Shown: positions 1,872 to 16,426 of the stretch, piece by piece
How positions within the stretch are numbered: position 1 is the stretch's first letter
How the letters are laid out: every line of letters starts with the position of its first letter
IMG/VR virus record: IMGVR_UViG_2537561977_000021
Span: 1 to 17,712 of that record
From: a virus
Lineage: Duplodnaviria; Heunggongvirae; Uroviricota; Caudoviricetes
DNA length: 17,712 nt
Strand: one strand, 5' to 3'
Notes under the pieces: model-generated
The model's database searches: none
What the model was told of the DNA's origin: nothing
What the model saw: only the letters and a program-made list of their open reading frames with translations
Position numbers and translations under genes: made by a program

Positions 1872-2027
1872 TTACTCCTCAGGTTCGTAAGCTGTGAAGA
1901 CAGCGACCTCCGTCTGGCCGGTTCGGATTCGTACCTCGCAGAGGTCTTTCCTCGTTACCAGTGCCGTCACTATGACGGTTAAACAGATGACGATAAGGGC
2001 GATTAACATCGCCTTTTGCTGCTTCAT
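1872..2027 (-). CDS. hokD: Hok-family type I toxin HokD (RelF), 51 aa
   Basis: MKQQKAMLIALIVICLTVIVTALVTRKDLCEVRIRTGQTEVAVFTAYEPEE matches HokD as recalled. An in-frame upstream ATG at 2084 gives a mok-like leader ORF. The leader resembles the plasmid R1 hok mRNA leader (GGUGCUUGAGGC..., AGCCUCUUAC...CAAGGAGAAG). Confidence 0.9.
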   Translation of the reverse strand: MKQQKAMLIALIVICLTVIVTALVTRKDLCEVRIRTGQTEVAVFTAYEPEE

Positions 2028-2076
2028 AGCCTGCTTCTCCTTGCCTTTCGGCACGTAAGAGGCTAACCTACATGTG

Positions 2077-2161
2077 TTCAGCATGGATTGAGCCTCAGAT
2101 TAATGTTAAGCGTCTTGCAGGACGCGTAATGTTAACTGGGGCTTTTCTCTATCTGCCTTTT
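2077..2161 (+). ncRNA. putative Sok-like antisense RNA of the hokD locus
   Basis: Plus-strand promoter-like TTGCCT (2041-2046), 17-bp spacer, TAACCT (2064-2069). The transcript would be antisense to the mok start (2082-2084) and end near the T-run at 2158-2161. Placement is by analogy with hok/sok of R1; ends are approximate. Confidence 0.3.
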
Positions 2162-2203
2162 GGTGTTCATGCCTGAGACAGATAGCCTCAAGCACCCGCA
2201 GTC

Positions 2204-2340: not shown

Positions 2341-2643
2341 ATGAGCAGAAAAACCCAACGTTACTCTAAAGAGTTCAAAGCCGAAGCTGTCAGAACGGTT
2401 CTTGAAAATCAACTTTCGATCAGTGAAGGCGCTTCCCGATTATCCCTTCCTGAAGGCACTTTAGGACAATGGGTTACCGCCGCCAGAAAAGGGCTCGGTA
2501 CTCCTGGTTCCCGCACGGTGGCTGAACTGGAATCTGAAATTCTGCAACTGCGTAAGGCGTTAAATGAAGCTCGCCTTGAGCGAGATATATTAAAAAAAGC
2601 AACAGCGTATTTTGCACAGGAGTCGCTGAAAAATACGCGTTAA
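2341..2643 (+). CDS. IS3-family (IS600) transposase OrfA, HTH DNA-binding
   Basis: 100-aa ORF MSRKTQRYSKEFKAEAV... with a leucine-zipper-like C-terminus. Slippery site A AAA AAA G at 2592-2599 near its 3' end. Confidence 0.85.
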   Translation: MSRKTQRYSKEFKAEAVRTVLENQLSISEGASRLSLPEGTLGQWVTAARKGLGTPGSRTVAELESEILQLRKALNEARLERDILKKATAYFAQESLKNTR

Positions 2644-2678
2644 TCGAACAATGGCGACAACAATTTCCCATTGAAGCG

Positions 2679-3497
2679 ATGTGTCAGGTATTTGGTGTAT
2701 CCAGGAGCGGTTATTACAACTGGGTACAGCATGAACCCTCAGACAGAAAACAAAGTGATGAGCGGCTAAAACTGGAGATTAAGGTGGCACATATCCGCAC
2801 TCGCGAAACATATGGAACCCGGCGGCTCCAGACGGAGCTGGCAGAGAATGGCATCATCGTTGGTCGTGACCGACTGGCACGTCTTCGTAAGGAGCTAAGG
2901 CTACGCTGTAAGCAGAAACGCAAGTTCAGAGCGACTACGAACTCGAACCACAATCTGCCAGTTGCGCCAAATCTGCTGAACCAGACGTTCGCTCCTACAG
3001 CACCAAATCAGGTCTGGGTGGCGGACCTGACGTATGTTGCCACACAGGAGGGATGGTTGTACCTCGCTGGCATCAAAGATGTTTATACGTGCGAAATTGT
3101 CGGCTACGCCATGGGAGAGCGCATGACAAAAGAGCTGACAGGTAAAGCCCTGTTTATGGCGCTCAGGAGCCAGCGCCCACCTGCCGGGCTAATCCACCAC
3201 TCTGATCGAGGTTCACAGTACTGCGCATACGATTACCGGGTCATACAGGAGCAGTTTGGTCTGAAAACATCAATGTCGCGTAAAGGTAACTGTTACGACA
3301 ACGCTCCGATGGAAAGCTTCTGGGGAACGCTGAAAAATGAGAGCCTGAGCCACTATCGTTTTAATAACCGGGATGAAGCCATCTCAGTAATACGGGAATA
3401 CATTGAGATTTTCTACAATCGTCAGCGTCGTCACTCTCGTCTGGGGAATATCTCCCCGGCAGCCTTCAGGGAAAAATATCATCAGATGGCTGCTTAA
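2679..3497 (+). CDS. IS3-family (IS600) transposase OrfB, DDE catalytic domain; made as an OrfAB fusion by -1 frameshift
   Basis: 272 aa from the first ATG. The frame is open upstream to the slippery site (reads ...KYALIEQWRQQFPIEAMCQVFGVSRSGYY). DDE integrase-core motifs present (WVADLTY, HSDRGSQY, YDNAPMESFWGTLK). Confidence 0.85.
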   Translation: MCQVFGVSRSGYYNWVQHEPSDRKQSDERLKLEIKVAHIRTRETYGTRRLQTELAENGIIVGRDRLARLRKELRLRCKQKRKFRATTNSNHNLPVAPNLLNQTFAPTAPNQVWVADLTYVATQEGWLYLAGIKDVYTCEIVGYAMGERMTKELTGKALFMALRSQRPPAGLIHHSDRGSQYCAYDYRVIQEQFGLKTSMSRKGNCYDNAPMESFWGTLKNESLSHYRFNNRDEAISVIREYIEIFYNRQRRHSRLGNISPAAFREKYHQMAA

Positions 3498-4458: not shown

Positions 4459-4914
4459 TTATTCAGTTTTTATTCCTGCTCTCAAAACAGCCTCTGCCAT
4501 TCTGATATCCGGATTTTCTGAAATCATCTTTTCCGGCGAGTCGCAATCACCACCACATTCAGTTATGCGTTCATGACCAAAACGAATTGTGGTTTTGTGC
4601 GCATTAATCATTTGTGTAAGCGCATCTGTCAATTCTGCAATGCGTTTGTCTTTAACTTCCAGCTCTTTCAGTAAAGCCAGTACGTCAGGATCGCTAACAT
4701 CAACGACGGTTACGCGCGATTTCAGGTAATGCTCATCCGCAAAAGTTCGACCAGTTTTAAAATATCCATCATCCCCCTCACCTGTGCAGGCATACACAAT
4801 ATGCGTTCTGGAAAATATGCGCTGTATCGACATTTCATCGCCACAAACAGGACATTCCGGCACCTGAATTGGTGAATAACGTTCACGTAATGCCTGGTAA
4901 TTAGTCTTGCACAC
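4459..4914 (-). CDS. hypothetical prophage protein with CxxC zinc-ribbon-like motifs, 151 aa
   Basis: GTG start at 4914 preceded by AGGAG (7-nt spacing). CPVCG and ECGGDCD motifs plus a coiled-coil-like segment. Overlaps the upstream gene by 14 nt (operon). Confidence 0.55.
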   Translation of the reverse strand: MCKTNYQALRERYSPIQVPECPVCGDEMSIQRIFSRTHIVYACTGEGDDGYFKTGRTFADEHYLKSRVTVVDVSDPDVLALLKELEVKDKRIAELTDALTQMINAHKTTIRFGHERITECGGDCDSPEKMISENPDIRMAEAVLRAGIKTE

Positions 4915-7507: not shown

Positions 7508-7933
7508 TCAATGCACAGCCAGAGTATTTCCTGCCGGACCACCACGATTCATCTGATCGAACAGAACAATCGCTGATGCAACGAAATCATCGATATCTTT
7601 CACCAGCTGTTCCTGCGTCTCCAGCAGTTCCCGAAAATAAACTGAACTGTGGCTGCGCATTCGGGCCACCAGCGGAGGCGGCATTGCCTTTTCGATCGCT
7701 GGTAACAACGCCTGAATTTTTTTAACAGCATCAGGGGTGTCTTTCTCTATCCAGCGGAAAATTTTCTGGGTATTGCGAGCCAGGGCTTCCGGATGGCTGT
7801 CGTCGTACAGTTCAGGGAACGTCATCCCCAGTTCGAAATAAGTCCGGGCTATCTCAGCCGCCGGAACTTTCTCACCATCAGGATATGCCCATGCATTCAT
7901 CGCCATACGGATGTGCTCATGCTTGATTTTCAT
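7508..7933 (-). CDS. YdaT-like (CII-like) prophage regulatory protein
   Basis: 141 aa starting MKIKHEHIRMAMNAW.... ATGA overlap with the upstream Cro-like gene. Family assignment from recalled YdaT features. Confidence 0.65.
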   Translation of the reverse strand: MKIKHEHIRMAMNAWAYPDGEKVPAAEIARTYFELGMTFPELYDDSHPEALARNTQKIFRWIEKDTPDAVKKIQALLPAIEKAMPPPLVARMRSHSSVYFRELLETQEQLVKDIDDFVASAIVLFDQMNRGGPAGNTLAVH

Positions 7934-8193
7934 GAATCACCCCCCGCCGATGGTTGTGTGTTAGCCTGAAACTCAGCAGGCAAGCCGTCAGTTGGGTTGG
8001 GGTAGGTTTTACTGTCAATCTCATGTGGGGTCACCACCCATCCCGTTGCTTCACACCAACGTAATATTTTTTCTCCTGTAAGTTTTGCACGCCCCGTTAT
8101 AACGTGGCTGACCATCCCCTGGGATGCGCCAACAATCTCAGCAAATGAACTCTGGGTTATATGAAAATGATGCAAATATTCTCCAAGATTCAT
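7930..8193 (-). CDS. YdaS/Cro-like HTH transcriptional regulator (lytic-side repressor)
   Basis: ATG at 8193 preceded by AGGGCGG; product MNLGEYLHHFHITQSSFAEIVGASQGMVSHVITGRAKLTGEKILRW... has an HTH. Divergent from the repressor gene across an operator-bearing intergenic region. The ORF-track start at 8220 is TTG. Confidence 0.75.
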   Translation of the reverse strand: MNLGEYLHHFHITQSSFAEIVGASQGMVSHVITGRAKLTGEKILRWCEATGWVVTPHEIDSKTYPNPTDGLPAEFQANTQPSAGGDS

Positions 8194-8229
8194 AATCCGC
8201 CCTATGTGATGTGTTACCAACGCATAATT

Positions 8230-8270
8230 AATAGCACTGTTATTTTTAAAAGTAAATAGCGATGCTATTT
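8230..8270. promoter_or_regulatory. OR-like operator region: two palindromic sites AATAGC-N3-GYTATT between divergent cro-like and repressor genes
   Basis: Site A AATAGCACTGTTATT (8230-8244); site B AAATAGCGATGCTATTT (8254-8270, perfect 7-bp half-sites). Candidate promoter elements overlap on both strands. Confidence 0.6.
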
Positions 8271-8304
8271 CAAAGTGATTAGCAATCTTATTAGAATTGG
8301 ATGT

Positions 8305-8805
8305 ATGAAAAGAAAATCACTGTCAGACACCGACCTCAACGCCGCCAGAAGACTGAAAGAAATCTGGATGGCAAAGAAATCTCAGTTGGGATTGACTCAG
8401 GAACGTGCGGCGGAAATTATGGGGTTTTCAACACAAGGGGCGGTAAGTCACTACCTAAATGGTCAAACCCCACTAAACCTTGAGGCTGTTCTAAAGTTTG
8501 CTGGCTTACTGAAAGTTCCCCCTGAGTCAATCAGGCCAGACATGGCAGATTTGCTGCAAATTGCAAGGATGTATTGTCGAGAACCACAGCAAGATAACAT
8601 AGTCGCATTACCAGCAGACACAGAACAAACAGAGGATGAACTACCGTTTGCCGTAGAGCCGATGGAACGAGATTTAATCCATACGTTCAGAGCTTTTCCG
8701 AAAGAAGATCAAGAACACATGCTTCAGGAGATGAAAGATAAAAAAGAATCAATGGATCGTACGGTTGCGCGGTGGTTAGCTGCACAAAAAGGCCGTCGCG
8801 CCTAA
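8305..8805 (+). CDS. CI-like prophage repressor / PaaR-like HTH (XRE family) regulator
   Basis: HTH LGLTQERAAEIMGFSTQGAVSHYLNG. Divergent from the cro-like gene and followed by the paaA-parE-like pair. ATG at 8305 (MKRKSL...) lies just downstream of TAGAAT at 8292-8297, so the mRNA may be leaderless; the alternative ATG at 8275 is not excluded. Confidence 0.7.
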   Translation: MKRKSLSDTDLNAARRLKEIWMAKKSQLGLTQERAAEIMGFSTQGAVSHYLNGQTPLNLEAVLKFAGLLKVPPESIRPDMADLLQIARMYCREPQQDNIVALPADTEQTEDELPFAVEPMERDLIHTFRAFPKEDQEHMLQEMKDKKESMDRTVARWLAAQKGRRA

Positions 8806-8824
8806 ATCAGAGGAGATATGTAAA

Positions 8825-9019
8825 ATGAGTACAGTCCTTTCCCCAATGGTTTCAGAATTTGAGACAGTTGAGCAAGAAAATAGTTACAACGAATGGCTGC
8901 GGGCCAAAGTAGCAGCAAGCCTCGCGGATCCCCGCCCGGCGATTCCGCATGATGAGGTAATGGCGGAAATGGAACAAATTATTGCCCAAATTGCTGCTGC
9001 AACTCACAGAGGTGAATAA
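8825..9019 (+). CDS. type II antitoxin, PaaA-like (ParE-associated antitoxin)
   Basis: 64 aa with GAGGAG 8 nt upstream. Sequence ...SPMVSEFETVEQENSYNEWLRAKVAASLADPRPAIPHDEV... resembles PaaA2-type antitoxins as recalled. Stop overlaps the toxin start (TAATG). Confidence 0.75.
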   Translation: MSTVLSPMVSEFETVEQENSYNEWLRAKVAASLADPRPAIPHDEVMAEMEQIIAQIAAATHRGE

Positions 9020-9309
9020 TGTTACCCGTTTTATGGCTACCATCTGCTCGTGATGATTTGCGCCAGATCGTAGCCTACATAGCTAAAGAAAATCCCGCGG
9101 CAGCACGCAGAATGAAAATTCGAATTGAAACATCCGTTTTGCCGCTCACAGAGCATCCTTACCTGTATCCTCCAAGCGAGCGAGTTCTTGGTCTTCGTGA
9201 AATTGTAACTCATCCTAACTACATCATCCTTTACCGAGTAACAGCATCAAGCATAGAAGTAGTAAATATTGTGCATTCTCGAAGACAGTATCCAGGCAAA
9301 AACAGTTAA
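9019..9309 (+). CDS. parE: ParE/RelE-family type II toxin
   Basis: 96 aa with hallmark RelE/ParE motifs (WLPSARDDLRQIVAYIAKENPAAARRM..., YIILYRV..IEVVNIVHSRR). Translationally coupled to the antitoxin. Confidence 0.85.
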   Translation: MLPVLWLPSARDDLRQIVAYIAKENPAAARRMKIRIETSVLPLTEHPYLYPPSERVLGLREIVTHPNYIILYRVTASSIEVVNIVHSRRQYPGKNS

Positions 9310-9325
9310 TTATTCCCGCCGACAG

Positions 9326-9348
9326 AACCACCTTAGGGTGGTTTTTTC
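9326..9348 (+). terminator. Rho-independent terminator ending the repressor-antitoxin-toxin operon
   Basis: AACCACC-TTAG-GGTGGTT followed by TTTTTTC. Confidence 0.7.
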
Positions 9349-9363
9349 TTGCTCCAACAAAAA

Positions 9364-9403
9364 CAATAGCGATGCTATTTACACCAAAAATAATGATGCT
9401 ATT
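9364..9403. promoter_or_regulatory. OL-like operator region: two further copies of the AATAGC-N3-GCTATT operator motif
   Basis: Site C CAATAGCGATGCTATTT (near-identical to site B) and site D AATAATGATGCTATT. They lie about 1.1 kb from the OR-like pair and upstream of the rightward early genes. Confidence 0.6.
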
Positions 9404-9582
9404 GTTTCAGGCGTCAACCCACCCCGCCCCACAGAATGCAGGGCAATACTTCGAGTTACCAGACAGTGGTCAGGGGTTAAGTAGCCAGCCCGAGGCGTAA
9501 GAACATGACGGCAGGGTTCAACTTTAACTATGCAGCAGGTTTTTGTTCCGCTCCCCCGGCGTTAAGGGGAAATGAGGTCAGC

Positions 9583-9735
9583 ATGGATACTATCAATCTT
9601 GGCAACAGCGAATCTCTGGTATGTGGCGTGTTTCCCAACCAGGACGGTACGTTCACCGCGATGACGTATACCAAAAGCAAAACGTTTAAAACCGAAGCTG
9701 GCGCGCGTCGCTGGTTATCCAGAAATACTGACTGA
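9583..9735 (+). CDS. small early protein (51 aa), YdfA-like by size and position
   Basis: ATG at 9583 with GAGG 5 nt upstream; product MDTINLGNSESLVCGVFPNQDGTFTAMTYTKSKTFKTEAGARRWLSRNTD. The ORF also extends to an upstream ATG at 9505 (alternative start). Confidence 0.45.
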   Translation: MDTINLGNSESLVCGVFPNQDGTFTAMTYTKSKTFKTEAGARRWLSRNTD

Positions 9736-11025: not shown

Positions 11026-12319
11026 CTGAGGGATCCCCAGAAAATTTAGTAAACCATTATCATATTGGTATACCGTTGCTGTAGAACTTTCAGCCCTGCG
11101 TCAAGTGACAGTGTGTTTAGTATGAGTGGAGAATGTCGAATCACATTCTCCGCCAGTTTTAATAACGAGATGACTCGCCTGTGCTTCACTGTATTTGCCT
11201 GATATTTATGATGTATCCCTTTGTTTTCCAGGCTGAAACCGCTTAACCACATAATGATACTGGCTAATGTTGCGATCAGACTCAATACCGTGACCCGCCC
11301 GGATGAATGACTGGCACCAAACCGTAGTCCAAATCCCCAGCGAGGATTTTTTTCATCCCTGAAATTTTGCTCAATTTGCATTCTACGGCTGTATAATTTC
11401 ATTACCTGTTTTGGCGAGAACTCAGTACTGTTTGTGAAAATAAACCATGGTGATTTCCCGGCAGTACGAGCTTTAGCCGTCACCGATGGTCTGGTTGCTC
11501 TTTCCTTCGAGCGTTTAAATCTACGACCTTTAGGCTTACTTTTATAAAGATAAAAATGCCCTTCATGTTGTGCATTTTTATCTCGACCCAGCAGGCCTTC
11601 ACCTAAATAAATTGCTGTCGTTGATGCTTTTGTGCCTGAGTCCGACACCTTTTCCCAGCCATTACCAACATTGTAATAATGATTGCCCAGTACCCGGCAA
11701 ATATAGGTCCAGCCACGGGAGCGGAGCTGTTGGAACCATCGCCCCTGAAAACCGGCATCTGTAATAACAATGACATCAGTCCCGGGGGAAAAGCACTCAG
11801 CAAGCGATTCCAGAAAACGCTCATGTACATCTGCATTCGCTGTCTGTGATGATGGAACGACACAACTCATCAACGGTAAAGAACGCCCGTCACATGCCAG
11901 GCTTGCCCGCAAAAGCTGAAAACGAGAGGCATGATAAGCACTCTAGTCAATGAGTATCACAACACGAGACATTCCCCGCGTAATCTTTTGGGTAATTCGC
12001 TGAAAAATGGTGGAAACCTCATTTTGCAAATGTCGATTCCCCAACAGTCGATCCACCCGCTTTATTTTGTTTTTAACTGATGCCGTACCGGTTAAATGAC
12101 GCCCGATACTGGTAAGTGTGAGGGAAGCGCCATTTATTACAGCATTAGTTGCGTCAATCAGTGATTTTTGACGGTAAAGATGCAAAGGGGCCAGTATGTT
12201 GTTAAGGAAATTTTGGCATAATGAACGTGCAGGCATAGTGGTGATCTCCTTGAAATTGTTAGCACAATCAATTAGATCACATCTCACTATGCCTGTCTTG
12301 TTTTCTGGGGATTCCTCAG
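11026..12319 (-). mobile_element. IS10-like insertion sequence (IS4 family), about 1294 bp, transposase inactivated
   Basis: Terminal inverted repeats CTGAGGGATCCCCAGAAAA (left) and TTTTCTGGGGATTCCTCAG (right). Flanking direct repeat GGGTTATCCT (11016-11025 and 12320-12329), consistent with a 9-bp target duplication; boundaries uncertain by 1 bp. Confidence 0.8.
11046..12236 (-). pseudogene. IS10-like transposase interrupted by an in-frame amber (TAG) codon
   Basis: The ORFs 11943-12347 and 11046-11912 are in the same frame, separated by TAG at 11945-11943. N-terminal motif KNKIKRVDRLLGNRHL and the C-terminal part align with IS10 transposase as recalled; the TAG sits where IS10 has Trp (TGG). 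Likely start is ATG at 12236 (MPARSL...). Confidence 0.75.
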
Positions 12320-12407
12320 GGGTTATCCTTACCCCCACAGGTAGCACCGGGTTGTCAGGTTGACCATACGCCCGAGTGACAACCCCGCCACAACATCTCC
12401 ATGTTGA

Positions 12408-12637: not shown

Positions 12638-12766
12638 CTGTGATGAAAGGTGAGAGAAAATGTTGAATGTAGCTATTGAAAACCAGAACGGGTGGAATTA
12701 TAGTGCACCTGCACCTCATAAAACGGGTGCCGGGATTGGCCTCCTGTTAATCACATTGGTGCCTGA

Positions 12767-12791
12767 ACACGCACCAAAAGCGTGTTTTTTG
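12767..12791 (+). terminator. Rho-independent terminator (ACACGC-ACCAAAA-GCGTGT + T6)
   Basis: Hairpin plus TTTTTT read directly. It lies inside the long ORF-track frame 12660-13508, arguing that Rha starts downstream. Confidence 0.55.
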
Positions 12792-12950
12792 TTGCCTGCA
12801 TTTCATCATTCAATGGCAGCTCAGGCGGGAGCTTCTCACGAAGCGCCGGGTTCCGATGTGACCGGTAAGGCCAATCCCGTCTGGGCTACCACCAATCGGA
12901 TTGGCCTCTGCGGTGGTGGCAGTACTGCTTTCACATCGGAGGATGCCGTT

Positions 12951-13508
12951 ATGGCTACTATCACTACCCTTTCTCACCCTTGTGTAACCATCGAAAATGG
13001 TCGCGCTGTCACCACATCTGTCGCCATTGCGGAATTCTTCCGCAAAATGCATAAAGACGTTCTGAAAAAAATAGACAACCTAGAATGCTCTGAGAAATTT
13101 AGCGGGCGCAATTTTGCGCCCGCCGAATATCTTGATGAGCAAGGCAAAAAACGCCCAATGTACCAGATCACCAAAAACGGCTTCGTTTTCCTGGTGATGG
13201 GATTCACTGGCAAAAAAGCCGCTGCATTTAAAGAAGCCTACATTGCTGAGTTCGATCGCATGGAGGCCGAACTGCGCCAGAATAACACCCCACCCACTGA
13301 CAAAATAATTCCAGGCGATGGCCGCACCCTGGTTGTTCACTTCGACGAACGCGGCAACATCAGATTCACCGAAACCGTTCCTGATGGCGCACGGGTCTGT
13401 ACCATGGAGACTTTCCGGTTTTATCTGGAAGAACAGGGATGGACTCTTGTTAACCGAGGCGCAATTAAAAATATGACTGTAGAGCAATTACTCAAAATTC
13501 ATTGTTGA
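12951..13508 (+). CDS. Rha-family phage regulatory protein (Phage_pRha domain)
   Basis: ATG at 12951 with GGAGGA 7 nt upstream. Motifs VTTSVAIAEFFRKMHKDVLKKIDNL...YQITKNGFVFLVMGFTGKKAAAFKEAYIAEFDRMEAEL match the Rha family as recalled. The ORF-track start at 12660 is rejected in favour of this one. Confidence 0.7.
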   Translation: MATITTLSHPCVTIENGRAVTTSVAIAEFFRKMHKDVLKKIDNLECSEKFSGRNFAPAEYLDEQGKKRPMYQITKNGFVFLVMGFTGKKAAAFKEAYIAEFDRMEAELRQNNTPPTDKIIPGDGRTLVVHFDERGNIRFTETVPDGARVCTMETFRFYLEEQGWTLVNRGAIKNMTVEQLLKIHC

Positions 13509-14125: not shown

Positions 14126-16426
14126 ATGGATGACAACGATTATGATGAAGACGACTTTAAAAAACCCGTCCGCGTCAATTTGCCCGTTGTTGACGACCTT
14201 CCGCCAGAAGGCGTGTTTGATACTGAATTCTGCAACCGCTATGAAAAAGGCGGGAAAGATGGCATCACAATGACATTTATCGGCCCTTCCCCCTCTGTTC
14301 AGGACAAACCAGCCAGCACTGACAATACCAACATCAACGGCGAAGACATGACTGAGATTGAGGAGAGCATGCTTCTGCCTGTCTCCGGTCAGGAACTGCC
14401 CATTCGTTGGCTTGCTCAACACGGCAGCGAAAAACCAGTAACGCACGTTTCACGCGACGAACTCCAGGCATTACACATTGCACGGGCTGAAGAACTACCG
14501 GCTGTTACTGCCCTGGCTATTTCGCATAAAACCAGTCTGCTCGACTCGCTGGAGATTCGCGACCTCCACAAACTGGTTCGTGACACTGACAAAGTTTTCC
14601 CTAATCCTGGTAATTCAGACCTGGGACTAATAACTGCTTTTTTCGAAGCATACCTAGACGCTGACTACACTGATCGGGGTCTGCTGACAAAAGAGTGGAT
14701 GAAAGGAAATCGTGTTTCACGCATCACCCGCACGGCTTCCGGTGCTAATGCTGGTGGTGGGAACAAAACCGATCGCAATCCGAATTTAGTACACACCCTC
14801 GACACACTGGATGTGGAGATTGCAGCAGCCACACTTCCGATGGATTTTAATATTTATGAAATTCCGGGCAGCGTTTATCGTCGCGCAAAAGAAGTAGTCC
14901 TGAAAAAAGAAAGTCCGTTCAAAGAATGGTCCGCAGCACTTCGTGCAACCCCGGGTATTCTGGACTATTCCCGCGCCGCTATTTTTGCACTTATCCGAAG
15001 CGCACACCCTGAATTTTATCACTACCCGGGACGCCTTCAGGGGTATATCAACGCCTATTTGACGGAAACTGATCACGAGAACCCCAGCAAGGAAACTCTC
15101 ACAGCTGCCCGGCATACGCCGGAAAAAGATATCCTGGAAGAAATTAACCGCGAGGTGGTTACTGAGCGTGAAACAGAAGAAGAAAAACCACAACCATCTG
15201 ACGCAATGGCAGGTGAACAGGCAACAACTGAAACAATGGAACCGGATACAACTGAACATTGCCAGAACGCGCAGTCGCTGGATGCTCAGTCGCAGGTGAG
15301 TTCCGCTAACCAAGTAAAAGTCACCGCTGACGAAGTAAACAAAATTATGCAGGCAGCCAATATCAGCCAGCCTGACGCCGATAAGTTACTTGCTGTATCG
15401 CGTGGTGAATTTGTTGAGGGGATTAGCGACCCTAATGATCCGAAATGGGTCAAGGGGATCCAGACTCGCGATTCTGTGAACCAGAACCAGCATGAATCGG
15501 AACGGAACGACCAAAAAGCGGAACAAAACAGCCCAAATGCGTTACAAAACGAGCCAGAAACGAAACAATCCGAACCAGTAGCGCAACAGGAACCGGAAAA
15601 AGTCTGCACCGCCTGCGGTCAGAGCGGTGGCGGCAACTGCCCTGATTGTGGCGCGGTGATGGGCGACGCAACATACCAGGAAACATTCGATGAAGAGAAT
15701 CAGGTTGAAGTTCAGGAAAATGATCCGGAAGAAATGGAAGGCGCTGAACATCCACACAAGGAGAACCCTGGCGGCAATCAGCATCACGCCAGCGATAATA
15801 AAACTGGCGAGGCGACAGATCCCTTAATTAAGGTGAATGGTCATCATAAGCTCACATCCACCAGCAGAGCGGGGATTCATCTGATGATCGACCTTGAAAC
15901 CATGGGAAAAAATCCCGATGCCCCGATTATCTCAATAGGCGCAATATTTTTCGATCCACAAACCGGAGATATGGGACCGGAATTTAGCAAGACCATCGAT
16001 CTGGATACTGCTGGCGGAGTCATTGATCGTGACGTCATTAAATGGTGGCTGAAGCAATCACGTGAAGCGCAGTCTGCCATTATGACCGATGAAATCCCGT
16101 TAGATGATGCACTACTGCAATTGCGGGAATTTATCGACGAAAACTCCGGTGAATTTTTTGTTCAGGTCTGGGGTAATGGGGCCAACTTCGACAACGTGAT
16201 TTTACGCCGTTCATACGAACGACAGGGTATCCCCTGCCCGTGGCGCTACTGCAACGATCGCGATGTACGCACAATCGTTGAGCTGGGGAAAGCCATAGAC
16301 TTCGATGCCAGAACTGCTATCCCATTCGAAGGTGAGCGCCATAATGCACTTGATGACGCTCGTTACCAGGCAAAATACGTTTCAGCTATCTGGCAAAAAC
16401 TGATCCCGAGTCAGGCTGATTTTTAA
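14126..16426 (+). CDS. large prophage exonuclease: acidic N-terminal region, central Cys-rich zinc-ribbon-like motif, C-terminal DEDDh (DnaQ-like) 3'-5' exonuclease domain
   Basis: 766-aa ORF. C-terminal motifs IDLETMG (Exo I), WGNGANFD (Exo II), HNALDDARYQAKY (Exo III, DEDDh); CTACGQSGGGNCPDCG in the middle. The true N-terminus may lie in the overlapping -1 frame ORF 13986-14273, which has GAGG 10 nt upstream. Confidence 0.75.
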   Translation: MDDNDYDEDDFKKPVRVNLPVVDDLPPEGVFDTEFCNRYEKGGKDGITMTFIGPSPSVQDKPASTDNTNINGEDMTEIEESMLLPVSGQELPIRWLAQHGSEKPVTHVSRDELQALHIARAEELPAVTALAISHKTSLLDSLEIRDLHKLVRDTDKVFPNPGNSDLGLITAFFEAYLDADYTDRGLLTKEWMKGNRVSRITRTASGANAGGGNKTDRNPNLVHTLDTLDVEIAAATLPMDFNIYEIPGSVYRRAKEVVLKKESPFKEWSAALRATPGILDYSRAAIFALIRSAHPEFYHYPGRLQGYINAYLTETDHENPSKETLTAARHTPEKDILEEINREVVTERETEEEKPQPSDAMAGEQATTETMEPDTTEHCQNAQSLDAQSQVSSANQVKVTADEVNKIMQAANISQPDADKLLAVSRGEFVEGISDPNDPKWVKGIQTRDSVNQNQHESERNDQKAEQNSPNALQNEPETKQSEPVAQQEPEKVCTACGQSGGGNCPDCGAVMGDATYQETFDEENQVEVQENDPEEMEGAEHPHKENPGGNQHHASDNKTGEATDPLIKVNGHHKLTSTSRAGIHLMIDLETMGKNPDAPIISIGAIFFDPQTGDMGPEFSKTIDLDTAGGVIDRDVIKWWLKQSREAQSAIMTDEIPLDDALLQLREFIDENSGEFFVQVWGNGANFDNVILRRSYERQGIPCPWRYCNDRDVRTIVELGKAIDFDARTAIPFEGERHNALDDARYQAKYVSAIWQKLIPSQADF

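Follow-up and report, generated by a model that had tools for sequence, protein, structure and literature searches.

Probable operators and predicted promoters of a lambdoid prophage immunity region related to that of CP-933P

Genes and inverted repeats of the immunity region

The analysed window is a 17,712-bp stretch of prophage DNA in which the gene order is the mirror image of that of phage lambda: the YdaT and YdaS-position genes are read leftward, followed by OR and, in the rightward direction, by the repressor gene, the PaaA/ParE genes, a terminator, OL/PL, and ydfA. Replication-side genes are located on the left, and ydfA, an exonuclease gene, a gene for a DUF4224 protein, and integrase-position ORFs on the right. 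The repressor gene (8305-8805, plus strand) encodes a protein of 166 amino acids composed of a lambda-CI-like N-terminal domain and a PaaR2/DicA-like C-terminal domain. Residues 2-82 are homologous to the N-terminal domain of lambda CI (phmmer against 1lmb, E = 1.3e-9) with ~38% identity, and the alignment shows that both the N-terminal arm and the helix-turn-helix (HTH) of CI are retained. Positive-control mutants of lambda CI are known for the acidic residues E34 and D38, which align with E33 and E37 of the 166-aa repressor. Pfam matches were obtained only for HTH_3/HTH_31, and an S24 (LexA-type, RecA-cleavable) domain as in lambda CI was not found by Pfam, so that no RecA-mediated cleavage is expected. 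The C-terminal 44 amino acids are 52% identical to residues 80-123 of PaaR2 (E = 4e-15), whereas the N-terminal domains of the two proteins show no similarity. The DicA profile (NCBIfam NF007257) covers only the C-terminal part of the repressor and scores 32.2 bits at a cut-off of 101. The PaaR2 sequence was obtained from one of the IMG/VR loci found with ParE2, L072, which has the published N-terminus MQKKE and the published intergenic region of 97 bp; a BLAST search with a ParE2-type locus listed no O157:H7 record.

The gene in the Cro position (ydaS/dicC position; 7930-8193, minus strand) is separated from the repressor gene by 111 bp. Its product of 87 amino acids gave weak matches to HigA/XRE HTH profiles and is annotated as an HTH protein in a 99.5%-identical record. 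It is followed by the YdaT-family gene (7508-7933, minus strand; Pfam YdaT_toxin), whose product, the CII analogue, is ~88% identical to the proteins of solved structures 3c4r and 8bt1 (E = 1.8e-80). The ydaS/ydaT junction contains a YdaT box, TTGATTTTCATGAATCAC (7923-7940), a putative PRE-type control site and the only match with at most one mismatch to the footprinted sequence TTGATTN6AATCAA in the window (0.14 expected). In its location the box corresponds to site OM of CP-933P (PMC9986795), where YdaT activates a PRE-like promoter (PMC8630535). On the other side, the repressor gene is followed by genes for a PaaA2-like antitoxin of 64 amino acids (8825-9019, plus strand; PaaA2 of PDB 3zbe/5cw7, E = 1.4e-23; NCBIfam RelB antitoxin) and a ParE2-like toxin (9019-9309, plus strand; PDB 5cw7_B, E = 6.7e-37). 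A terminator scan predicted that the repressor-paaA-parE operon ends at an intrinsic terminator with a 9-bp stem and a T run (9324-9351, plus strand), which is kept in all relatives. The first gene of the predicted PL operon is ydfA (9583-9735, plus strand; Pfam DUF1391, E = 3.5e-28), which shows 92% nucleotide identity to ydfA of the K-12 prophage Qin. No LexA boxes were found in the 17.7-kb window, which therefore gives no indication of SOS control. A second copy of the PL leader, such as would form a put/nut-like pair, was looked for and not found, and Rfam at a permissive threshold yielded chance-level matches only for positions 8150-9700.

The first-pass annotation of this DNA had pointed out four copies of AATAGC-N3-GCTATT. 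A scan of the entire window with AATAGCNNNGCTATT, allowing up to two mismatches, returned exactly four, starting at 8230, 8255, 9365, and 9389, and none in the rest of the 17.7 kb. The mean number expected by chance was 0.58, and four or more matches occurred in 1 of 200 shuffled sequences. Operator A (8230-8244, AATAGCACTGTTATT, one mismatch) takes the position of OR1 and operator B (8255-8269), a perfect palindrome AATAGCGATGCTATT, that of OR2. The same perfect palindrome forms operator C (9365-9379) in the position of OL2, and operator D (9389-9403, AATAATGATGCTATT, two mismatches) takes the position of OL1. The coordinates also bear out the earlier description of one pair between the divergent cro-like and repressor genes (8230-8270) and another ~1.1 kb away, as well as the identity of B and C over 16 bp, since AATAGCGATGCTATTT is present at both 8255-8270 and 9365-9380. 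The C/D pair follows the terminator of the repressor operon and overlaps a predicted promoter directed toward ydfA and the early-left genes, which is the position of PL. Almost certainly, the four repeats serve as the operators to which the repressor of a lambda-like prophage switch binds.

A candidate fifth operator, E (8278-8292), has the degenerate sequence ATTAGCAATCTTATT with three mismatches to the full pattern, but only one in the invariant outer quartets AATA/TATT. At a distance of 23 bp from site B, it falls between the two hexamers (−35 and −10) of the predicted PRM, where lambda OR3 would predict a site, and is kept in relatives except for positions 5-6. By sequence alone site E is not significant, as 11 sites with up to three mismatches were found versus 7 expected. 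OR appears to consist of two strong sites plus a weak one at the expected place. Both OR sites named earlier stood, with the number amended: OR probably has three sites rather than two. OL has two sites and no third; the position expected for OL3 is taken up by the T run of the terminator.

Predicted promoters and the start of the repressor mRNA

The promoter scan called a putative PL (9378-9405, plus strand) with a −35 element TTTACA, a 16-nt spacer, and a TG-extended −10 element TATTGT. The putative PR (8228-8256, minus strand) was read from the sequence; it has a −35 element TTTACT (8256-8251), a 17-nt spacer, and an extended −10 element TGcTATTAA (8236-8228). PR is missing from the list of the promoter scan because its −10 hexamer, TATTAA, does not have the T that the consensus has at position 6. 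It represents an inverted copy of the PL module and is unchanged in 20 OR variants. The predicted PRM (8269-8304, plus strand) consists of TTCAAA (8269-8274), a 17-nt spacer, and TAGAAT (8292-8297), followed after 7 nt by the ATG. The promoter scan found 9 of 12 consensus matches for it, and 3.0 matches of this quality are expected by chance in the region. None of the 20 OR variants differs in either hexamer, in their spacing, or in the 7 nt that separate TAGAAT from the ATG. Predicted start points are 8303-8305 for PRM, ~8221 on the minus strand for PR, and ~9412 for PL.

At PR and PL alike, one site lies over the −35 and another over the −10 element; operator C overlaps the −35 element of PL by 2 bp and operator D overlaps its −10 element. 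The centre of operator A is ~16 nt upstream of the predicted start of PR. The centre of operator B is at −43 from the repressor ATG and at about −41 from the PR start, compared to −42 and −41 for OR2 of lambda. Measured from the repressor start codon, the centres of A, B, and E are at −68, −43, and −20, those of lambda OR1, OR2, and OR3 from the cI ATG at −66, −42, and −19, and the centre-to-centre spacings are 25, 23, and 24 bp here versus 24, 23, and 24 bp in lambda. The positions of the sites with respect to the predicted PR, PRM, and PL thus agree with lambda to within 1-2 bp. The PL of this locus, with its 16-nt spacer and a site spacing of 24 bp, is unique among 44 compared sequences; 38 of them have 25 bp, and the spacer is 17 nt in most relatives. 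The lambda-like OL/OR architecture proposed in the first-pass annotation is supported by operator layout, gene order, and geometry; one amendment is that the repressor, lacking the LexA-type domain, is not a full homologue of lambda CI.

That annotation had also drawn attention to a TAGAAT 7 nt ahead of the repressor ATG. The sequence reads TAGAAT at 8292-8297, then TGGATGT, then the ATG at 8305, from which a protein beginning with MKRKS would be made, and there is no Shine-Dalgarno sequence at a usable distance from this ATG. An in-frame GTG upstream, at 8275, was considered as a start codon and rejected, as the diverged clade has GAG in its place. Four heteroimmune types share a −10 hexamer at a distance of 6-7 nt from the start codon of the repressor: the PaaR2 locus has GATAAT, 6 nt, and ATG, and two further types have TAAAAT, 6 nt, and ATG. 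For PaaR2, 5′ RACE, N-terminal sequencing, and mass spectrometry showed that the mRNA is leaderless (PMC8630535). Sequence and analogy suggest a leaderless repressor mRNA originating from the predicted PRM.

Conservation, co-variation, and other readings of the repeats

The comparative set, drawn from IMG/VR, comprised 43 loci encoding repressors with 78% identity or more. All 43 contain the four sites at fixed offsets and almost nowhere else: A at −75 and B at −50 from the repressor ATG, C at +1048 to +1061, and D likewise present. Among 30 distinct site variants the outer AATA/TATT is constant and the inner seven positions vary. Between the two clades of loci, synonymous sites are saturated (coding dS 1.2-1.5, dN/dS 0.05-0.13), yet the 77-bp OR core differs at only ~10 positions. 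The Cro-position protein of the diverged clade is 82% identical with a conserved HTH segment, and the recognition segment of the repressor is unchanged between the clades sharing the sites. Purifying selection is strong on the repressor gene (dN/dS 0.085), the cro-like gene (0.075), and parE.

Compared to a CP-933P-type locus, homology is lost only at 7940-8739, the segment comprising cro, OR, and the repressor N-terminal domain, and at ~9267-9414, the OL/PL segment; it is regained from 9415 on, a few nucleotides past the predicted start of PL. AATAGC-N3-GCTATT is absent from loci with another repressor N-terminal domain, which have a repeat of their own at both the OR and the OL place. Conversely, the CP-933P operator motif GTTTAGTAA is absent from OR and OL here, its single match with three mismatches in the window being located at 4592, and the Qin operator motif is likewise absent from OR and OL. 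The operator sites are thus under constraint and co-vary with the N-terminal domain of the repressor. Because the swapped segment 7940-8739 carries both genes, co-variation cannot separate the repressor from the Cro-like protein.

This last point bears on the identity of the binding protein. Both regulators have an HTH domain and both lie in the swapped specificity segment, so the palindromes might be bound by the Cro-position (YdaS-like) protein alone, with the 166-aa protein acting elsewhere or mainly regulating the toxin-antitoxin genes. However, in lambda, CP-933P, and Qin both regulators use the same operators, the repressor studied here retains the arm and HTH of CI and an invariant recognition segment in clades sharing the sites, and activation by the repressor would agree with a site whose centre lies at −43 of PRM; we regard binding by the Cro-position protein alone as very unlikely. 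Still harder to credit is the idea that the sites are classical type II autoregulatory operators of PaaA-ParE unrelated to phage immunity. The toxin-antitoxin genes are indeed co-transcribed with the repressor gene and lie between the two site pairs, but PaaA2 lacks a DNA-binding domain (PMC8630535), the C/D pair is situated downstream of the terminator of the toxin-antitoxin operon over an outward-facing promoter, and the sites follow the repressor N-terminal domain while the toxin-antitoxin genes are homologous across immunity types.

The operators might also be assigned correctly and the repressor mRNA nevertheless not be leaderless, with its main start lying upstream, at a YdaT-activated PRE-type promoter in ydaS/ydaT or in the intergenic region, and TAGAAT not being a working −10 element. 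The YdaT box favours an upstream start, PRE of CP-933P provides paaR2 with a second, long-leader transcript (PMC8630535), and the consensus match of PRM is of a quality expected three times by chance. On the other hand, PRM and its distance to the ATG are unchanged in 20 variants despite saturated neutral sites, the ATG lacks a usable Shine-Dalgarno sequence, and the same −10-to-ATG geometry is shared by four heteroimmune types, one of them leaderless by experiment; moreover, a PRE transcript would add to that from PRM, as in lambda, and not replace it. A leadered main transcript is in our view improbable, if worth keeping in mind. Less probable again is that the repeats are the relic of a once functional switch, now inert in a decayed prophage. 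IS insertions are present at 2341-3497 and 11046-11912, the closest genome has a frameshift in the Q gene, PL is unusually spaced, and this repressor occurs in no sequenced phage searched. Against decay of the switch stand the dN/dS values of 0.05-0.13 for the repressor, cro-like, and parE genes and the conservation of the operators in 43 loci, and the switches of the cryptic prophages CP-933P and Qin are still functional. Control of a viable phage by the switch may nevertheless have been lost, given the IS insertions.

Proposed switch and relation to known systems

Our preferred reading is that the region is a lambdoid prophage immunity region which, judging from sequence and analogy, very probably works as a lambda-type bistable switch; the operator-binding protein, the transcription starts, autoactivation, looping, and the induction route we infer. 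A dimer of the 166-aa repressor would bind palindromic operators of 15-17 bp with the invariant core AATA-N7-TATT. Occupancy of A and B, which cover the −10 and −35 elements of PR, would silence the Cro-like, CII-like, and replication genes behind it. As site B abuts the −35 element of PRM and is centred at −43, like lambda OR2 at −42, the repressor bound there probably activates PRM. Through the weak site E (−20), abundant repressor would probably exert negative autoregulation, and the Cro-like protein is likely to bind first at this site. Transcription from PRM would begin at the ATG at 8305, or no more than ~2 nt from it, yielding a leaderless repressor-paaA-parE transcript ending at the terminator. 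Occupancy of C and D over the −35 and −10 elements of PL would silence the operon of ydfA and the exonuclease, DUF4224, and integrase-position ORFs downstream. The small PaaR2-type C-terminal domain probably mediates oligomerisation, which would make binding cooperative and might allow OR and OL, 1.1 kb apart, to form a loop. In a repressor devoid of a RecA-cleavable domain, switching would be either spontaneous (bistable) or driven by an antirepressor; a Rha-family protein is encoded at ~12951-13508.

The immunity architecture of CP-933P has been published (Jurenas 2021, PMC8630535; Prolic-Kalinsek et al. 2023, PMC9986795). PaaR2, which forms octamers, and YdaS both footprint on OR, both repress PR, PRM, and PL, and PRM is activated at low PaaR2 levels (PMC8630535). 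The present locus shares with CP-933P/Sp12 of E. coli O157:H7 the order ydaT, ydaS, OR, repressor, paaA, parE, OL/PL, and conserved leader, a YdaT with ~88% identity and a box likewise at the ydaS/ydaT junction, homologous PaaA and ParE proteins, the 52%-identical C-terminal repressor domain, and the absence of a RecA-cleavable domain from both repressors. Both also have a −10 hexamer 6-7 nt ahead of the start codon of the repressor and an OR motif that recurs at PL. PaaR2 has an N-terminal domain unrelated to the lambda-CI-like one found here, and the DNA-binding data for PaaR2 are therefore not directly transferable. Further differences are a Cro-position protein unrelated in sequence, operators of the type AATAGC-N3-GCTATT here and GTTTAGTAA there, two strong and one weak OR sites and two OL sites compared to the reported 3-4 and 3, and an intergenic region of 111 bp compared to 97 bp.

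Lambda has a homologous CI N-terminal domain including the arm, palindromic sites of the 17-bp class on both sides, though with a different half-site sequence, and an accessory module plus terminator between the repressor gene and OL, which is rexAB in lambda and a toxin-antitoxin pair here; the repressor mRNA is leaderless in lambda and predicted to be so here. In contrast to lambda, the repressor of this locus has no S24 C-terminal domain, OL contains two sites only, the distance between OR and OL is 1.1 kb rather than 2.4 kb, the places of Cro and CII are taken by YdaS and YdaT, which belong to unrelated families, and the N gene and a recognisable nut site are absent.

The dicC-dicA-dicBp region of Qin in E. 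coli K-12 has divergent cro-like and repressor genes around OR as well, its OR operators recur at the promoter of the operon containing ydfA, the gene 92% identical to that described here, and dicB, and its repressor is short and non-cleavable, with a family profile that fits the C-terminal part of ours. DicA, DicC, and dicBp behave like their CP-933P counterparts (PMC10448788), and the Qin switch is bistable and subject to the antirepressor Rem (Bejar et al. 1986/1988, cited in PMC10448788; Yun et al. 2012, PMC3441716). Qin differs by operators of the type TGTTAG-N8-CTAACA, by a different DicA N-terminal domain (23% identity overall), and by the lack of toxin-antitoxin genes in the interval from the repressor gene to PL. 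Against the DicA family, our repressor scores far below the cut-off (32 versus 101 bits).

As the architecture has already been published for CP-933P (Jurenas 2021) and for dicA/dicC/dicB of Qin, the locus is a specificity variant of a switch type worked out experimentally in the sister prophage CP-933P, and the understanding of how such switches work is unchanged. For this immunity type the analysis adds the operator sequence with its invariant core and a predicted promoter map; AATAGCGATGCTATT had no match in a full-text literature search. It also presents the CP-933P-type region as a mosaic family in which one toxin-antitoxin pair and one C-terminal domain are combined with several DNA-binding specificities, and extends the leaderless-repressor geometry to several of these specificities. 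Whether the repressor is a natural chimera, joining DNA binding and activation of the lambda CI type to a PaaR2/DicA-type oligomerisation domain of ~45 amino acids and using the exact promoter-operator geometry of lambda with no more than 2(+1)+2 operators, separated by 1.1 kb, and without a RecA-cleavable domain, and whether the leaderless −10 geometry is a design rule in at least four heteroimmune PaaR-type regions and not peculiar to lambda and CP-933P, are propositions to which, taken together, we give about even chances. If they hold, the family offers ready domain swaps for finding out which features of the lambda switch, among them cooperativity, looping, autoactivation, and leaderless translation, require the C-terminal domain of CI.

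No repressor relatives were found among species-representative genomes, and no sequenced phage with this immunity type is known from searches of a phage collection: megablast of positions 7900-9600 matched the PL leader and ydfA only, and tblastn with the repressor detected nothing closer than the lambda cI family (~32%). Most of the 1.7-kb region is present in 72 of 5,426 complete E. coli genomes, and a near-identical protein of the same 90% cluster is recorded for no fewer than 1,000 contigs, which bear Shigella sonnei names. Public records name the repressor merely "helix-turn-helix domain-containing protein."

Operator repeats and predicted promoters at OR and OL

The first-pass annotation had described four copies of an AATAGC-N3-GCTATT operator as a lambda-like OR/OL arrangement, with two copies identical over 16 bp. 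The sequence at 8220-8310 and 9355-9410 agrees with this description, and the 16-bp identity of sites B and C was borne out. Allowing two mismatches at most, AATAGCNNNGCTATT has exactly four matches in the whole window, all of them the known sites: A (8230-8244, AATAGCACTGTTATT) and B (8255-8269, AATAGCGATGCTATT) in OR, the intergenic region between the cro-like and repressor genes, and C (9365-9379, AATAGCGATGCTATT) and D (9389-9403, AATAATGATGCTATT) at OL. The mean in 200 dinucleotide-preserving shuffles was 0.58 matches, and four were reached in 1 of the 200. Loosening the scan to three mismatches added site E (ATTAGCAATCTTATT, 8278-8292), which is not significant by sequence alone (11 sites at up to three mismatches versus 7 expected). 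At a distance of 23 bp from site B, site E falls within the predicted repressor promoter, between its -35 and -10, which is the place expected for lambda OR3; OR probably contains three sites, including this candidate. The relaxed core AATA-N7-TATT has a fifth exact match within the exonuclease gene (AATAGGCGCAATATT, 15934-15948), which is probably due to chance because its inner positions do not fit.

A promoter scanner predicted PL (9378-9405, plus strand; TTTACA, 16 nt, TG-extended TATTGT) and the repressor promoter PRM (8269-8297, plus strand; TTCAAA, 17 nt, TAGAAT). PR was read from the sequence on the minus strand (-35 TTTACT at 8256-8251, 17 nt, TGcTATTAA at 8236-8228); the scanner missed it because its -10 has no T at position 6. 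PR and PL are copies of one another in opposite orientation (inverted repeats I2 and I3). Site B shares 2 bp with a -35, as does site C, and the -10 elements lie under sites A and D. The OR site centres lie at -68, -43, and -20 from the repressor ATG, compared to -66, -42, and -19 in lambda, and the centre-to-centre spacings OR1-OR2, OR2-OR3, and OL1-OL2 are 25, 23, and 24 bp, compared to 24, 23, and 24 bp. An A run (9379-9389) lies between C and D; most relatives have 1 nt more in it, and the shorter run gives the 16-nt PL spacer. Among 44 sequences compared, only the window has a C-D spacing of 24 bp, with 25 bp in 38 and 26-28 bp in a few; the run has the behaviour of a tract prone to slippage, with effects on both promoter spacing and operator phasing.

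Conservation of the sites and co-variation with immunity specificity

Scanning IMG/VR with the repressor gave 50 loci, 43 of which encode a repressor at least 78% identical. All 43 carry four sites at -75, -50, ~+1048 to +1061, and ~+1073 to +1089 from the ATG and almost nowhere else within 4-6.5 kb. Across 30 different versions of the site, AATA (positions 1-4) and TATT (positions 12-15) are invariant while the inner seven vary, a pattern that would be expected of a dimeric HTH protein reading two outer half-sites. Window-type and O104:H4-type alleles differ with a dS of 1.2-1.5 and a dN/dS of 0.05-0.13 (repressor, cro-like gene, and parE). Between them, the 77-bp OR core has ~10 differences, mostly at site centres, the adjoining cro leader is scrambled with an indel, and the repressor HTH segment and N-terminal arm are unchanged. 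This comparative evidence points to functional sites.

Using BLAST, we compared the window with L072, a locus of the CP-933P type (prophage of E. coli O157:H7). Homology extends through ydaT up to 7939, is absent over 7940-8739 (cro-like gene, OR, and repressor N-terminal domain with linker), returns from 8740 through paaA and parE, is absent again over ~9267-9414 (terminator and OL/PL), and reaches 94% identity from 9415 on. The same motif is thus present in two separate non-homologous segments, which is what an immunity-specificity swap requires. The AATAGC motif is absent from the loci with other N-terminal domains (L048-L054), which have their own OR repeats, recurring just before the conserved junction CAACCCACCCC. 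The Qin prophage of K-12 shows the same arrangement with TGTTAG..CTAACA-type sites. Neither the CP-933P nor the Qin operator motif was found at OR or OL of the window.

The repressor and its mRNA

Residues 2-82 of the repressor align with the N-terminal domain of lambda CI, and the similarity takes in the basic N-terminal arm (E = 1.3e-9, ~38% identity). Positive-control mutants of lambda CI show that its E34 and D38 make contact with sigma region 4. The repressor residues E33 and E37 align with them, and by analogy we infer that PRM may be activated from site B. A Pfam search gave HTH_3 only and no S24 peptidase domain. PaaR2, the CP-933P repressor, was taken from IMG/VR loci (123 aa; MQKKE start and 97-bp ydaS-paaR2 intergenic region both as published, PMC8630535). 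Its C-terminus is 52% identical to the last 44 residues of our repressor (E = 4e-15), whereas the N-terminal domains are unrelated; the DicA profile matches the same C-terminal part with a score below its cut-off. As judged from these matches, the repressor is a non-cleavable, two-part protein with a lambda-CI-like N-terminal and a PaaR2-type C-terminal domain. Among the relatives, a single C-terminal domain and a single toxin-antitoxin cassette occur with at least five N-terminal types. In L049 (2821-3625) and L105/L118, paaA-parE is preceded by two PaaR-type repressor genes in tandem, one with a PaaR2-like N-terminal domain (METREIRRL...) and the other with a different one (MGVLEISAL...); the C-terminal domain is common to both.

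The first-pass annotation had also suggested a leaderless repressor mRNA. TAGAAT at 8292-8297 is indeed followed, after 7 nt, by the repressor ATG at 8305, and the -35, the -10, and this gap are identical in 20/20 OR variants. The ATG lacks a suitably spaced Shine-Dalgarno sequence, and the N-terminus of the protein aligns with the N-terminal arm of lambda CI. In frame upstream, only GTG at 8275 could serve as a start, and the other clade has GAG there. In three further heteroimmune repressors of the PaaR type, GATAAT or TAAAAT precedes the ATG by exactly 6 nt, and leaderless expression of PaaR2 was established by 5' RACE together with N-terminal sequencing and mass spectrometry (PMC8630535). 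A leaderless mRNA is therefore a prediction well supported by analogy and conservation; a start at G8303 with a 2-nt leader would fit just as well. YdaT-dependent transcription from PRE is likely to provide a second transcript with a long leader. The only window match to the footprinted YdaT site with at most one mismatch covers 7923-7940, where ydaS meets ydaT, and CP-933P has its site at the same junction.

Gene order, related systems, and the PL operon

The gene order was derived from the closest complete genome, E. coli FDAARGOS_944 (99.5% identity over 7900-9600), and our own family searches. Leftward are the Cro-position HTH gene (7930-8193), a gene of the YdaT family (7508-7933; ~88% identity to the YdaT structures 3c4r and 8bt1), and, beyond it, DUF977, DUF4406, and Ea22-like genes, with RusA and Q further left in the reference genome. 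Rightward follow the 166-aa HTH repressor (8305-8805), a PaaA2-like antitoxin (8825-9019; E = 1.4e-23 to 3zbe), a ParE2-like toxin (9019-9309; E = 6.7e-37 to 5cw7), a rightward intrinsic terminator (9324-9345 plus T run) between parE and the second site pair, and, past sites C and D, ydfA (9583-9735; DUF1391), then exonuclease VIII-like, DUF4224, and integrase-position ORFs. The lambda map is the mirror image, and the toxin-antitoxin pair takes the place of rexAB. An IS3-type element (HTH_Tnp_1 and rve ORFs, 2341-3497) interrupts one prophage arm and a minus-strand DDE_Tnp_1 transposase (11046-12347) the other, within the PL operon; the IS-disrupted prophage is probably defective. A second addiction module of the same prophage is a hok/sok-type type I toxin-antitoxin locus (1872-2197; Rfam sok at 2022-2197, minus strand), where hokD is annotated in the matching genome.

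In CP-933P, OR is footprinted by PaaR2 and YdaS, each of which represses PR, PRM, and PL (with OL1-3); PRM is activated at low PaaR2 levels and PRE by YdaT, PaaR2 forms octamers, has no cleavage motif, and does not respond to mitomycin C, and the locus is bistable (Jurenas et al. 2021, PMC8630535). The Qin dicA/dicC/dicBp locus, with Rem as antirepressor, has been called lambda-like since the 1980s (PMC10448788). The window locus is a heteroimmune sibling of these two. The lambda-like OR/OL reading stands in amended form: OR probably has three sites, the repressor is non-cleavable with a PaaR2-type C-terminal domain, the prophage is disrupted, and the system is of a known kind. A full-text literature search gave no match to the operator sequence, public records name the repressor only "helix-turn-helix domain-containing protein," and no carrier was found among sequenced phages.

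The PL transcript's 5' leader (9415-9582) shows 94% identity between heteroimmune loci and ~95% to many Escherichia phages, which exceeds the conservation of the flanking genes. The leader opens with the C-rich tract CAACCCACCCCGCCCC, matches no Rfam family, and has no second copy in the window; a role like that of rut, nut, or put would be speculation. ydfA could begin earlier, at an in-frame ATG at 9505. LexA boxes were not found anywhere in the window. Rfam isrK/C4 antisense-RNA matches (12711-12790 and 12809-12896) lie in the 5' part of an Ash plus Rha-domain ORF (12660-13508), and a good Shine-Dalgarno sequence and ATG suggest ~12951 as the real start of the Rha-family protein. This region looks like an antirepressor module of the P1 immI/Gifsy isrK-anrP type, facing the same way as PL, and offers a candidate route of induction for the non-cleavable repressor.
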